Shown here one piece after another: positions 26,312 to 29,655 of a DNA stretch of 64,000 nucleotides (positions are counted from its first letter, which is position 1; the number at the start of each line of letters is the position of its first letter). Both the position numbers and the translations under genes were made by a program. Origin of the DNA: an uncultured candidatus Porisulfidus sp. Its GTDB lineage: Bacteria > Pseudomonadota > Gammaproteobacteria > Poriferisulfidales > Poriferisulfidaceae. The notes beneath the pieces were generated by a model that was not told the DNA's origin, ran no database searches, and was given only the letters and a program-made list of their open reading frames with translations. The stretch is from contig CBDASZ010000001.1 in NCBI GenBank assembly GCA_965199755.1, positions 737,509 through 801,508 of the forward strand, written 5' to 3'.

Positions 26312-27598
26312 TTACGCGAACATATCGGCGACGATGTTGTTGTACCAGCTGTATGCATACTGTACTTCGCGCTTGAGCATCTCGTCAGAGGCATCCGTCG
26401 GCGTTAGGCCGCCGGCCACCTTGTCGATTTTGCTCTTGTCCGCATTGAGGCGGTAGACCGCGGCGACCGAGATACCGTAGTCCGGCGCGATCAGGCTGTA
26501 GCACGTGTTGACGTAGGATGGCGTGCCTGGTTCGGCCTCGGCCAGCAGGGCGACCACTGCTGCGGCGCAGACTTTGGCCTCCGAGTTCGCGGCGTAGCCG
26601 GATTTCGGCAAGCCGGTGGCGATGCTGGCATCACCGACCACATGTACGCCCGGCACCAGTGTCGACTCGAAGGTGTCCAAGTGAATGGGACACCAGCCGG
26701 ACTCATCGGTCAGGCCGGCCGCTTGCGCGATTTTGCCGGCGCTTTGCGGCGGGATGATGTTGATCACCGCACCTTCGTGAGTATCATCAAACTGCGTGGT
26801 CACGGTCATGGCTCCGGTATCAACCTCGGCAATGCCGCCGGCGGTTTCAGCGCCTGGCACCCACTGGATCATGCCGTCATAGCGTCGCTCCCAGCCTTGC
26901 GTGAACAGTCCCATCTTGGAGAACTTGTCCTTGGCGTCGAGCACCAGAATCTTGGATTTGGGCTTGTGTTCGCTGAAGTAATGCGCAACCTGACAGATCC
27001 GCTCATAAGGTCCGGGGGGACAGCGGAACGGATTGCCCGGCGGGCAGATGATAAAGGTGCCGCCTTCGTCCATCGCTTCGAGTTGCGAGCGTAGCAGGGC
27101 GGTTTGCGGTCCGGCCTTCCAGGCATGCGGCATGACTTCGGCCGCGGCTTCGTCATAGCCTTCAATGGCATCATATTTCAGGTCAATGCCGGGGCTGACG
27201 ATCAGACGATCGTAGGCATGGCTGCCGCCGTCGTCGGTGCTCACCGTGCGTGCGTCGGTGTCGACGCCGGTGGCCGTCGCGTGCACCACCTTGATGCCGT
27301 GTGCGGCCAAGCCCTCGTAACCATGGCGAATGGTCTCGATGTTGCGCCCGCCACCAATGACTTCATTGCTCATGAAGCAGGTGTAGTGGTGCGTGTTGGC
27401 TTCGATCAGCGTGACGTTGATGCTGCTGTCAGCCATCTTCACGGATTTGGCGGCTACCGCGCCGCCGGCACCACCGCCGATGACGACGACATTCTTGTTG
27501 CCGCCCAAAGCGATGTGTGGGAAACCGGCCCCCAGTGCGCCGATGGCGGCTGCGCCGCTGGTGGCTTTGAGGAATCCGCGTCGGGTCAATGTAGTCAT
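26312..27598 (-). CDS. fccB: Flavocytochrome c sulfide dehydrogenase, flavoprotein subunit.
   Basis: Tat signal '[21 protein letters not shown]' and FAD motif '[15 protein letters not shown]'. It is co-oriented downstream of the dihaem cytochrome subunit. Confidence 0.85.
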
Positions 27599-27617
27599 GA
27601 TGAGGGTTCCTCCGCGC

Positions 27618-28310
27618 TTACTGTTGGCTGGCGTAATAGTGGATGAGGTCGGTCAGACCGTCCTCACCCGTGGTTTCGTGGACGTCCTTGAGTCGGGACC
27701 TCATTTTCTTGGGCATGCCGCGCGTGCCGCTATGGAAGTCGGCCAGCGAATATTGCAAATAAGGCACCCACTGTCCGGCCAGTGGCACCATGTCATCCAG
27801 TGTGGAGCGGCCGCCGTCTTCATGGCACTTTTCGCAATTATCGGCGTGCAAGGCTTCACCGGAACTGACGCGGTCGGCATCGAACTCCTGGGTTGCCGCC
27901 ACCATGCTCATACCAGCGAAGTAATCGGCCATGGCTTTGATCTCATCGAGCGTGTAGCCGCCGGCGATGCGTCCCATGATGGTGCCCTGGCGTTGAAAGA
28001 TACTGACGTCTTCCAGTGTGGCGTCGCCGTCGACAATCGCTTCGGCTGCATCCAGATCTGCGGCGTGCTTGTAGGAAAGCATGGCTCCGATGAAGTAAGT
28101 GGCTGGCAGGCCTGCTAGCGAGGGGGTAGCCGGGCCGATGCTGTTGCCGCTTGGGCCATGACAGGCGACACAGGCTCCGGTCAGCATGGACACCGATGCC
28201 ATAGGTGCGGTGTCTTCCGCATGCAGCATGGGTGAACATACAAGTGCGGCGGCCAACGTAAGACGGGCGAAAAATTGCAGTTGCATCAGTCCCTCCTGAT
28301 TGGGGTACAT
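27618..28310 (-). CDS. fccA: Flavocytochrome c sulfide dehydrogenase, dihaem cytochrome c subunit.
   Basis: Signal peptide; two CxxCH motifs ('CVACHG' and 'CEKCHEDGG'). Confidence 0.8.
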
Positions 28311-28463: not shown

Positions 28464-28539
28464 GCGGGAATAGCTCAGTTGGTAGAGCGTAACCTTGCCA
28501 AGGTTAAGGTCGCCGGTTCGAACCCGGTTTCCCGCTCCA
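28464..28539 (+). tRNA. tRNA-Gly (anticodon GCC).
   Basis: 'gcgggaatagctcagttggtagagc...ccttGCCaagg...ggttcgaacccgg-tttcccgc-t-cca' is near-identical to E. coli glyW. Confidence 0.92.
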
Positions 28540-28556: not shown

Positions 28557-28630
28557 GGCTGAGTGGCAGAGTGGTTATGCAGCGGCCTGCAAAGCCGTGG
28601 ACGCCGGTTCGATTCCGACCTCAGCCTCCA
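28557..28630 (+). tRNA. tRNA-Cys (anticodon GCA).
   Basis: 'ggctgagtggcagagtggttatgcagcggcctGCAaagccg...ggttcgattccgacctcagcc-t-cca'. Confidence 0.9.
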
Positions 28631-28638
28631 TTTGGGAC

Positions 28639-28788
28639 TTATAGCAGGGTGACGCAGTTAGCTAGGTCGTCATCAGCCAACGCCCCGATGATCGTCCAGC
28701 AGCCGTCCCAATCTCTGGGTTCAATGTCCCTTAAAAGCCCAGTCAGGGTTGCATCCAGTTCTGTCATGCGTGGTGCTAGTTCAGTCAT
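28639..28788 (-). CDS. Small ORF (49 aa, 'MTELAPRMTELDATLTG...') in the insertion between tRNA-Cys and tRNA-Leu; hypothetical.
   Basis: The SD 'caGGAGaagaaa' lies directly upstream of the ATG on the minus strand. No family was recognised. A 10-aa 'MTELELRYPE' mini-ORF lies just upstream. Confidence 0.25.
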   Translation of the reverse strand: MTELAPRMTELDATLTGLLRDIEPRDWDGCWTIIGALADDDLANCVTLL

Positions 28789-28925
28789 TTTCTTCTCCTG
28801 GGCTTGCGCCCGTGTTGGCGGCTGCGTCACTCCGGATAACGTAGTTCCAGCTCAGTCATCAGGCGAGCCTGGGCGGCACCGGCTGCAGGCGCGCGCGTGA
28901 GTCAGAGTGGTCAGGCTTCGGCTAT

Positions 28926-29030
28926 CTAAGGTGCCTTTCGGACGAATACCTTTGCCTGATACTTGAACTGATTGCCGACAGGTGAGACGAATACCTTTAT
29001 GTCGTCGGAAATTTTATAGACCTCTTTCAT
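28926..29030 (-). CDS. Small ORF (34 aa, 'MKEVYKISDDIKVFVSPVGNQFKYQAKVFVRKAP'); hypothetical.
   Basis: The SD 'GGAGAttaatc' precedes the ATG. It contains an internal 'KVFV' repeat, mirrored by a 15-nt direct DNA repeat. The region is low-GC. Confidence 0.25.
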   Translation of the reverse strand: MKEVYKISDDIKVFVSPVGNQFKYQAKVFVRKAP

Positions 29031-29273
29031 GATTAATCTCCATGAGCCATTCATGGCCCTAGCATAACACCCCGAAGTATCACCAAGCGACACTCAGAAT
29101 CTGCTATCGGATGGTCTGTAAGATCCTTATCAATCGGGAATGAGAAGAAACTTTCGGGTGAAATTTGCAGGAAAGAGTCTGTCAATTTCCCTATATAAGT
29201 TTCCTCCATTTCTCCGTCGTATGCTTACTGAAACAAGTGTGAGATACGGCAGTGTCATACAATACGCCGCAGT

Positions 29274-29576
29274 GCGGGCGTGGCGAAATTGGTAGACGCA
29301 ACGGACTTGAAAATTTGAGTGCTCCGTGGGAAACCGCGGATGCAGAACCGCTCAAATTCGGGGAACCCTGAAATATGGCAATCCCGAGCCAAGCTCCGCT
29401 CTATTTGAGTGGAGAAGGTGTAGAGACTAGACGGGCGGCACCTAAGGTCAAGGCTAAGGTGAAGGGATAGTCCGGACCACAAACCGGATCCTGATCCGGG
29501 CGGCGCAAGCCGTAGTTGGTGTGAAAATCCGTAGGGCGAATAGCCCGTGGGGGTTCAAGTCCCTCCGCCCGCACCA
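29274..29576 (+). tRNA. tRNA-Leu (anticodon UAA) interrupted by a group I intron. Exon 1 is 29274-29308 and exon 2 is 29524-29576, giving an 88-nt mature tRNA.
   Basis: The acceptor 'gcgggcg' pairs with 'cgcccgc', followed by 'a-cca'. There is a D-arm, and an anticodon stem 'acgga'/'tccgt' with loop 'c-t-t | a-a-a-a' split after U34. It has the long variable arm 'agggcgaatagcccgt' and the T-arm 'gggggttcaagtccctc'. The gly-cys-leu(UAA) context matches E. coli glyW-cysT-leuZ. Confidence 0.85.
29309..29523 (+). ncRNA. Group I self-splicing intron (IC3-like) inserted between U34 and A35 of tRNA-Leu(UAA).
   Basis: The 5' splice site follows a U. P1 forms as exon 'actt' with intron 'gagt', giving the U-G wobble. 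P2 is 'ccgtgg-GAAA-ccgcgg', with a GNRA loop. The core 'gaaggtgtagagactagacgg..cacctaaggtcaaggctaaggtgaagggatagtccgg' matches the conserved R/S (P7/P3/P8-P9) elements of the Azoarcus and cyanobacterial tRNA group I ribozymes. It is also similar in 'caaattcgg..tatggcaa..cgagccaagct'. It ends in omega-G ('gtgtg'). Confidence 0.85.
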
Positions 29577-29591
29577 CCTATCTCTTTGGAG

Positions 29592-29623
29592 ATACTTGAC
29601 TAATTTAGTCAGGATTGTATAAT
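29592..29623 (+). promoter_or_regulatory. isc operon promoter with a type-1 IscR binding site overlapping the -35/-10 elements.
   Basis: 'ATACTTGACTAATTTAGTCAGGATT' fits the type-1 IscR consensus ATAsyyGACTrwwwyAGTCrrsTAT. The -35 is 'TTGACT' (29596-29601) and the -10 is 'TATAAT' (29618-29623), with a 16-nt spacer. It lies 33 nt upstream of iscR. Confidence 0.65.
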
Positions 29624-29655
29624 GTGCTCATCATCTACAGGGTGCATGAGTCAAC

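Follow-up and report, generated by a model that had tools for sequence, protein, structure and literature searches.

The stretch of DNA analysed here (the window, 64 kb in total) comes from a sulfur-oxidising gammaproteobacterium, and carries on its plus strand genes for tRNA-Gly(GCC) and tRNA-Cys(GCA), followed by a tRNA-Leu(UAA) gene that is split within its anticodon loop. Two minus-strand open reading frames at 26312-28310, which from their sequence alone we take to be flavocytochrome c sulfide dehydrogenase genes, precede these tRNA genes. A strong promoter-like site at 29596-29623, 20 bases past tRNA-Leu, lies ahead of iscR, the product of which has a Pfam match to the Rrf2 family; further on come open reading frames matching iscS, iscU, iscA and hscB of the isc cluster in relatives. 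The tRNA features of the locus are as follows:

28464-28539, plus strand: tRNA-Gly(GCC)
28557-28630, plus strand: tRNA-Cys(GCA), 643 nt upstream of tRNA-Leu
29274-29308, plus strand: 5' exon of tRNA-Leu(UAA), 35 nt, from ARAGORN, run on the joined exons and in intron mode
29309-29523, plus strand: group I intron, 215 nt, from Rfam RF00028 and the ARAGORN intron-mode boundaries
29524-29576, plus strand: 3' exon of tRNA-Leu(UAA), 53 nt, from ARAGORN

The 5' exon (GCGGGCGTGGCGAAATTGGTAGACGCAACGGACTT) supplies the acceptor stem, the D arm, the 5' half of the anticodon stem and nucleotides C32, U33 and U34. It terminates in ...ACGGACUU, the last nucleotide ahead of the 5' splice site (U-1) being U29308. 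The 3' exon (AAAATCCGTAGGGCGAATAGCCCGTGGGGGTTCAAGTCCCTCCGCCCGCACCA) opens with AAAAUCCGU and ends in an encoded CCA. It contributes A35 and A36, the remaining anticodon loop and stem, the long variable and T arms, and the acceptor strand. Once joined, the exons were recognised by ARAGORN as an 88-nt tRNA-Leu(taa), and in intron mode, run on the genomic sequence, the program again found this gene, placing a 215-nt intron between GACTT and AAAAT. The exon coordinates, the 88-nt reconstruction and the placement of a 215-nt insert after U34 that had been put forward in the first-pass annotation are therefore correct by both sequence and ARAGORN, and the intron-aware gene search that it had proposed does find the gene. 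Neither default ARAGORN nor the Rfam tRNA model detected the split gene in the 64-kb window. A scan of splice sites at the window locus showed that the only site with a preceding U lies after U34, giving Leu(UAA); the one alternative has a preceding C and would give Phe(GAA).

The insert was identified as a group I intron by an Rfam covariance search, which had also been suggested at the outset. The match to Intron_gpI (RF00028) lies on the plus strand at 29299-29488 and spans model positions 1-253, the full model, with a score of 61.5 bits, the gathering threshold being 50 (E 3.6e-13 for the 64-kb window), confirming the earlier call of a group I ribozyme. The core 20-mer AAGGTGTAGAGACTAGACGG has a single occurrence in the window, at 29415-29434, and zero occurrences are expected in shuffles, even with 3 mismatches; the precursor fold was also more stable than 100 of 100 shuffles (z = -4.45). 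Chance similarity is ruled out by the RF00028 E-value together with the shuffles, and a second intron of the same type in the window is ruled out by the core being found once even at 3 mismatches. The longest plus-strand open reading frames inside the intron are 31-34 aa. The 75-aa open reading frame that had been described as spurious is present on the minus strand at 29255-29482, overlapping the intron, and has no Pfam match. An intron-encoded homing endonuclease was rejected on these grounds, as the 215-nt intron holds no suitable reading frame, and an intron without a homing endonuclease gene is not mobile by homing.

The helices were mapped on the window sequence, and this map was then scored on 44 tRNA-Leu introns (the window and 43 others), aligned end to end with 8 nt of exon on each side and a mean column identity of 65%. 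Its elements are:

29305-29320, plus strand: P1 hairpin, exon ACUU (29305-29308) and intron GA (29309-29310) pairing with UUGAGU (29315-29320)
29314-29316, plus strand: P10 guide UUU, which can pair with AAA at 29524-29526, the first bases of the 3' exon
29322-29329 with 29334-29342, plus strand: P2, with U29341 bulged and a GAAA tetraloop at 29330-29333
29348-29353, plus strand: P3 5' strand CCGCUC, pairing with the P3 3' strand GGGCGG at 29433-29438
29357-29363 with 29382-29388, plus strand: P4, enclosing P5
29367-29368 with 29377-29378, plus strand: P5, a minimal helix of 2 bp
29389-29390 with 29417-29418, plus strand: P6
29394-29401 with 29407-29414, plus strand: P6a hairpin
29423-29429, plus strand: P7 5' strand G(A)GACUA with A29424 bulged, pairing with UAGUCC at 29468-29473
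29440-29460, plus strand: P8 hairpin, with a CCUAAG...CUAAGG motif like the 11-nt receptor for GAAA tetraloops
29461-29473, plus strand: J8/7 GAAGGGA and the P7 3' strand UAGUCC (29468-29473), almost invariant in the alignment
29476-29520, plus strand: P9 domain, its closing helix ACCA/UGGU (29476-29479 with 29517-29520) enclosing two hairpins
29484-29489 with 29494-29499, plus strand: P9a
29500-29504 with 29509-29513, plus strand: P9b, with a GCAA tetraloop at 29505-29508
29523, plus strand: omega-G, the terminal guanosine directly ahead of the 3' splice site

The U-G wobble of P1, the P2 hairpin with its GAAA loop, the catalytic core and the terminal G, all listed in the first-pass annotation, can be read directly in the window. 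The 5' splice site is marked by the U29308-G29317 wobble, a U-G pair in 44 of 44 aligned introns, and P1 as a whole is 97.7% paired; U-1 and omega-G are likewise found in all 44. The two P10 U-A pairs closest to the splice site occur in 38-39 of the 44 introns, where the invariant 3' exon makes covariation impossible, and suggest that a P10 helix may form for exon ligation. P2, with the sequence CCGUGG-GAAA-CCGCGG, is 90.3% paired and has both-side changes in seven of its eight pairs, as does P6a (7/8). P3 is 99.6% paired, with a window C-G replaced by U-A in 29 relatives; P4 is 97.7% paired, and P5 is 100% paired with a C-G/G-C exchange in 13 relatives. P6 is invariant across the alignment. 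P7, which crosses P3 to form a pseudoknot and which, from established knowledge of group I introns, we take to be the guanosine-binding site, is invariant in 44 of 44 introns and shows no covariation there, all relatives having been selected for the exact shared core 20-mer. A compensatory change in P7 (GACUG/CAGUC) is found in a plasmid homologue described below. The three outer pairs of P8 are 99.2% paired and the three inner pairs 78%. By analogy with the Azoarcus intron, P8 is the likely docking site for the GAAA loop of P2. Within the P9 domain, which beyond 29488 lies outside the Rfam match and was drawn from the family alignment, the closing helix is 92.5% paired, P9a is 87.3% paired with both-side changes in all six pairs, and P9b is 93.2% paired.

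Over the whole map, 94.0% of alignment cells pair as compared with 81.2% in shuffles, none of 500 shuffles attaining the observed value, and sliding the partners by 1-3 columns lowers pairing to 30-43%; since the window intron, on which the map was drawn, is itself in the alignment, the pairing percentages (78-100% per helix) and the slid-partner control lean towards the map. Stronger evidence is provided by both-side changes, which were found in 38 of 66 pairs. Compensatory changes are plentiful in P2, P6a, P9a and P9b, with some in P3, P5, P8 and P9, and P4 also has both-side changes; covariation is uninformative for P7 and much of the core, which are invariant among the relatives. An independent run of RNAalifold on 77 introns recovered P1, P2, P4, P5, P6a, P8, P9, P9a and P9b.

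The comparison with the closely related locus of Candidatus Porisulfidus (L071) bears on whether the intron is still maintained. Sixteen pairs have changed between the two introns, of which 15 are still paired, 12 of them by double change, which marks continuing selection on the fold. Vertical inheritance under such selection appears to describe the intron in the window's lineage. It is highly improbable that the locus is instead a decaying relic, that is, a pseudogene with a non-splicing intron in a genome whose tRNA-Leu(UAA) is supplied by another gene elsewhere: apart from the preserved pairs, the two exons are undamaged and join into a canonical tRNA, and the core elements, U-1 and omega-G are all present. 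These features outweigh the points in favour of decay, namely that no more than 64 kb of the genome is in view, that such split genes can occur as truncated second copies (seen at locus L011), and that the intron of the relative L001 differs from that of the window by two mismatched pairs, A-C in P2 and in P6a.

The gene is thus very probably the equivalent of leuZ, in which a 215-nt group I intron of the bacterial tRNA class separates U34 from A35 of tRNA-Leu(UAA) and is spliced by the standard group I pathway. The sequence with its splice-site nucleotides, the Rfam match, the conserved and covarying fold and the joining of the exons into a tRNA-Leu are observed; the catalysis, the tertiary contacts and the promoter are inferred. 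The precursor would be transcribed, probably from its own promoter just upstream, and the intron would adopt the P1-P9 architecture, its core probably braced by docking of the P2 GAAA loop into P8 and of the P9b GCAA loop into P5. Free guanosine held in P7 would attack the phosphate after U29308, in the U-G wobble of P1. G29523 would then take over the guanosine site, P10 would align the 3' exon, and the 3'-OH of U34 would attack the 3' splice site, so joining the exons. The predicted products are a mature 88-nt tRNA with the anticodon loop CUUAAAA and the released intron.

Many plastid trnL introns splice with protein help, and a true group I intron dependent in vivo on a protein cofactor or chaperone, rather than self-splicing autonomously, would fit the minimal periphery seen here (P5 has only 2 bp) and the P8 receptor CUAAGG in place of the canonical UAUGG. 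The Azoarcus intron, at 205 nt, is self-splicing and efficiently so without protein, and the core of the window intron is identical over at least 20 nt to that of self-splicing bacterial members. Self-splicing has been lost in some plastid members of the class, which lack it in vitro (PMC9275481), as against the small bacterial members that self-splice efficiently without protein; the Nostoc tRNA-Leu intron serves as a positive control for self-splicing in vitro in PMC13011429, which cites Zaug et al. (1993). On balance, a requirement for protein is very unlikely.

The insert is assigned on its sequence to the bacterial tRNA intron class, the IC3 of the literature and Leu.3Ug of Williams (2020), an IC3 label that rests on homology to the class and not on a subgroup-specific model. 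This subgroup was deduced from the group I intron database, which marks all four classical tRNA intron classes as IC3 (as quoted in 10.1101/2020.01.27.920355), and from the finding that 81% of bacterial tRNA introns belong to subgroup IC (PMC13011429).

Several known introns are useful for comparison. The tRNA-Leu(UAA) intron of Anabaena has the same host gene and the same U34/A35 site, the U-G wobble, omega-G and P1-P9 architecture, no open reading frame and a similar size (about 200-250 nt), but the window's host is gammaproteobacterial and its P5 and P6 are shorter. The two cores presumably differ at two positions of the 20-mer (GGUGCAGAGACUCGACGG vs GGUGUAGAGACUAGACGG). Other proteobacterial tRNA-Leu(UAA) introns are direct homologues that align over their full length, with only lineage-level differences in P2, P6a, P8 and P9a; the L9b loop is GCAA in the window and GAAA in most relatives. 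Reinhold-Hurek and Shub reportedly described, in 1992, the introns of Azoarcus tRNA-Ile(CAU) and Agrobacterium tRNA-Arg(CCU), which belong to the same small IC3-type ribozyme family. The core 20-mer is common to tRNA-Ile2(CAU) introns and to the tRNA-Arg(CCU/UCU) and tRNA-fMet classes, and is found exactly in tRNA-Ile2(CAU) introns of Polynucleobacter and Neisseriaceae and in tRNA-Arg(CCU) introns of Methylorubrum and Xanthobacter. In contrast to the window intron, those of Azoarcus and Agrobacterium interrupt other tRNAs and are inserted after position 36 instead of 34, and therefore have a different guide sequence. The Azoarcus intron also has longer P2 and P5 helices and two canonical tetraloop receptors.

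The distribution of the class was assessed by searching a set of genomes, one for each bacterial species, for exact copies of the 20-mer AAGGTGTAGAGACTAGACGG; at least 120 species genomes contain it. Raw ARAGORN splice-site calls were unreliable, L001 being called tRNA-Phe and a plasmid copy tRNA-Stop, and splice sites were re-derived with G as the last intron base and U (failing that, C) as the final base of the 5' exon. Among the 120 or more matches listed, at least 80 loci are tRNA-Leu(UAA) genes split after U34; the others are mainly tRNA(CAU) and tRNA-Arg(CCU/UCU), with ten in which no gene could be resolved. The split Leu(UAA) genes among the matches listed include at least four from named Gammaproteobacteria (Halioglobus, Carnimonas, Microbulbifer and Ca. 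Porisulfidus), at least six from Betaproteobacteria, at least about 47 from Alphaproteobacteria, at least 14 from Acidobacteriota and at least three from Bacteroidota. The introns nearest to that of the window are 69-91% identical to it, with 91% for L001; among the matches listed, the nearest ones beyond the window's own lineage are those of L071 and Halioglobus (L061), each with 76% identity.

The first-pass annotation had regarded such an intron as unusual for a gammaproteobacterium, a view that is not upheld by the at least 80 split Leu(UAA) genes, four named Gammaproteobacteria among them. Vepritskiy et al. are said to have described a tRNA-Leu intron in a gamma-proteobacterium in 2002. 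For the gammaproteobacteria Beggiatoa and Thiomargarita there are reports of interrupted tRNA-Leu-TAA genes (PMC4853749), and 34/35 introns of tRNA-Leu in Pseudomonadota are already included in surveys (PMC13011429; bioRxiv 10.1101/2020.01.27.920355). One of these recorded 5,292 split tRNA genes in about 80,000 genomes and counts 34/35 in tRNA-Leu(UAA) among the four classical classes of bacterial tRNA intron (10.1101/2020.01.27.920355); the other, from 2026, places Pseudomonadota introns mainly at 33/34, 34/35 and 36/37 (PMC13011429). The tRNA-Leu 34/35 site is treated as classical in three sources (PMC13011429; 10.1101/2020.01.27.920355; PMC4476775). The claim that such an intron is unusual in a gammaproteobacterium is outdated.

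The gene neighbourhood clarifies the position of the split gene. The order Gly(GCC)-Cys(GCA)-Leu(UAA) on one strand is that of glyW-cysT-leuZ in E. coli, and an operon of this type had been proposed for the window. The order of tRNA-Gly, tRNA-Cys, spacer and split tRNA-Leu recurs in four other Gammaproteobacteria, Halioglobus, Carnimonas and Microbulbifer among them (L071, L061 and L065, with Cys-Leu in L092); across the relatives, L071 included, the spacers range from 170 to about 2,360 nt. As this order is shared across relatives, the leuZ-type position is ancestral. Checking relatives for the intron, a further suggestion made at the start, showed that L001 (a 2.63-Mb ENA contig, IscS 92% identical to that of the window) and L071 (1.76 Mb, IscS 85% identical) carry the same intron at the same site, directly upstream of iscR, and L071 retains iscR-iscS downstream. 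At the isc locus of four more relatives by IscS (L125-L128, 79-87% identity) no tRNA was found, and three of them have suhB or trmJ upstream of iscR.

Although the gene order proposed for the operon is thus conserved, its co-transcription as one operon is doubtful. The 643-nt spacer between tRNA-Cys and tRNA-Leu has a 3' part of 42-46% GC as compared with about 60% in the flanks, and its plus strand holds no terminator-like or promoter-like site. In L001, a transposase lies upstream, and neither tRNA-Gly nor tRNA-Cys is found within about 3 kb upstream. The AT-rich spacer and the missing Gly and Cys genes of L001 leave a single transcription unit unproven and make a separate promoter for tRNA-Leu likely. 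No consensus sigma-70 promoter was found upstream of the split tRNA-Leu; in each of the three closest genomes a -10-like hexamer lies 8-12 nt ahead of the tRNA, which in the window is TACAAT at 29258-29263 and which we take to be the likely separate promoter.

A homologue of the split gene is also widespread on plasmids, where a BLAST search returned 1,285 records. On pCTX-M3 the matching gene, a tRNA-Leu(UAA) split by a 213-nt intron, is complete. Its exons give an 86-nt tRNA-Leu(taa), and the core helices of the intron are all intact. About 90 nt separate it from the stop codon of a tmrB-like ATPase gene, which adjoins the resistance gene aac(3)-IId. The 310-nt element recurs at 99% identity or more in 1,277 PLSDB plasmids; of 5,426 complete E. 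coli genomes, 636 carry it, and no annotation lies under it in any record listed. The nearest relatives of the plasmid intron are alphaproteobacterial, at about 80% identity. The aac(3)/tmrB pair has a homologue with 86% nucleotide identity in an environmental contig, where the flanking genes match Sinorhizobium loci; homology there ends at the tmrB stop codon and there is no tRNA at that point. A literature search limited to one collection of papers returned none tying tmrB to a group I intron or to tRNA-Leu.

The window copy only just passes the RF00028 threshold. At the gathering score, the model misses clear homologues, namely L071, L061, L123 and L124, which include the plasmid copy (36.8 bits) and the intron of a Bradyrhizobium plasmid, and Rfam-based surveys therefore under-count these introns. 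The annotation of the window gene is correct and useful, and adds one more member to a well-described class. Without the split-gene call, the genome would seem to be short of a tRNA-Leu(UAA), and the annotation at this position would instead be a spurious 75-aa open reading frame.

A rough neighbour-joining tree of 77 introns places the window, L001, L071 and Halioglobus in one clade. The Betaproteobacteria cluster together, as do the Acidobacteriota, with one Binatia sequence inside; the only ones to group with marine Alphaproteobacteria are Carnimonas and Microbulbifer. The pattern looks like largely vertical inheritance and some transfer. A broader view, which we hold as a tentative and rather doubtful one, is that the U34/A35 intron is an old, mostly vertically inherited resident of many phyla and no speciality of cyanobacteria and plastids. 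If this were true, the copy in the window would go back to an intron older than the divergence of these groups rather than to a recent acquisition.

A search with the split tRNA-Leu(UAA) gene of the window (29274-29576) retrieved a gene of the same kind from the plasmid pCTX-M3:

L123:4001-4299 (pCTX-M3, NC_004464.2 61823-62121): complete, unannotated split tRNA-Leu(UAA) gene

Splicing at U-1 and omega-G would yield an 86-nt tRNA-Leu(taa) as the predicted product, and every core helix of the intron is intact. Its closest relatives are alphaproteobacterial introns of ∼80% identity. In PLSDB the 310-nt plasmid element occurs at ≥99% identity in 1,277 plasmids, whose hosts include E. coli, Klebsiella, Salmonella and Acinetobacter; among 5,426 complete genomes of E. 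coli, 636 carry it. In pCTX-M3 the group I intron measures 213 nt, and ∼90 nt separate the split gene from the tmrB-like ATPase gene at its stop codon; aac(3)-IId adjoins them, with ISCfr1 and IS26 on either side.

A gene pair homologous to that of the resistance plasmids was recovered from an environmental contig:

L130:3127-4564 and L129 (JGI 3300048852 contig Ga0496061_000101; Logan SRR35547097): AAC(3) gene overlapping a tmrB-like gene

The environmental AAC(3) shares 87% protein identity with AAC(3)-IId; the figure for the tmrB-like gene is 88%. The two genes are arranged as on the resistance plasmids, and across 1,450 nt the nucleotide identity is 86%. The pair is flanked by BA14K and EF-hand genes, which have counterparts at Sinorhizobium loci carrying tmrB alone (L131, L132). 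Together, the environmental pair and these matching flanks suggest that the aac(3)-II/tmrB module came from a Rhizobiaceae-like lineage. On the environmental contig, the gene pair has no tRNA-Leu intron next to it.

A proteobacterial genome from a metagenome (L011) carries the split gene in one complete and one truncated copy:

L011:5517-5826: complete split tRNA-Leu(UAA)
L011:6129-6290, minus strand: truncated second copy, opposite in orientation to the complete copy and ∼300 nt away

The truncated copy comprises the 5′ exon and roughly the first two thirds of an intron, and its subtype is ATTGGAGTG, as in the plasmid-borne copy. Seven phage records also match the window intron, at 70–76% identity over 39–82% of its length; Gordonia phage Daredevil, Pelagibacter phage HTVC120P and two uncultured phages of 735 kb are among them. 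The phage matches include:

LR756501.1 190325-190495
NC_048021.1 41897-42009
MH598807.1 19653-19771

There is no annotation beneath the phage matches. Phages, too, thus carry related ribozyme cores.

The surroundings of the tRNA-Leu gene contain the following features:

window 28631-29273: 643-nt spacer between tRNA-Cys and tRNA-Leu
window 28639-28830, minus strand: 63-aa ORF in the spacer
window 28926-29093, minus strand: 55-aa ORF in the spacer
L001:2530-2720 (closest relative): run of short CTCGCTC/GAGCGAG-based repeats upstream of the split tRNA-Leu
window 29585-29630, L001:3440-3475 and L071 (a Ca. Porisulfidus locus) about 2380-2420: conserved block ATACTTGACTnATTTAGTCAGGATTGTAtAAT, 20 nt past tRNA-Leu and immediately ahead of iscR

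The spacer holds short ORFs only, none with a Pfam match, and its 3′ part is AT-rich (GC 42–46% against ∼60%). In four other Gammaproteobacteria the cysT-leuZ spacer ranges from 170 to ∼2,360 nt, a variation in length that reads as if DNA had been repeatedly inserted or lost between the two genes. The repeat run of the closest relative adjoins a DDE transposase gene and has no counterpart in the window. Downstream, block ATACTTGACTnATTTAGTCAGGATTGTAtAAT is overlapped by a near-consensus promoter (TTGACT, 16 nt, TATAAT), with no terminator between tRNA-Leu and this promoter. Within the block, an inverted repeat (GACT...AGTC) resembles an IscR operator.

At its gathering score, Rfam RF00028 did not report the introns of four loci that are clear homologues of the window intron:

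L071:1545-1850 (Ca. Porisulfidus)
L061:456-754 (Halioglobus)
L124:2501-2791 (Bradyrhizobium plasmid)
L123:4001-4299 (pCTX-M3)

The pCTX-M3 intron scored 36.8 bits, under the threshold, and the window intron itself 61.5 bits, merely 11.5 bits over it. Because the model misses such clear homologues, Rfam-based surveys will under-count bacterial tRNA introns.
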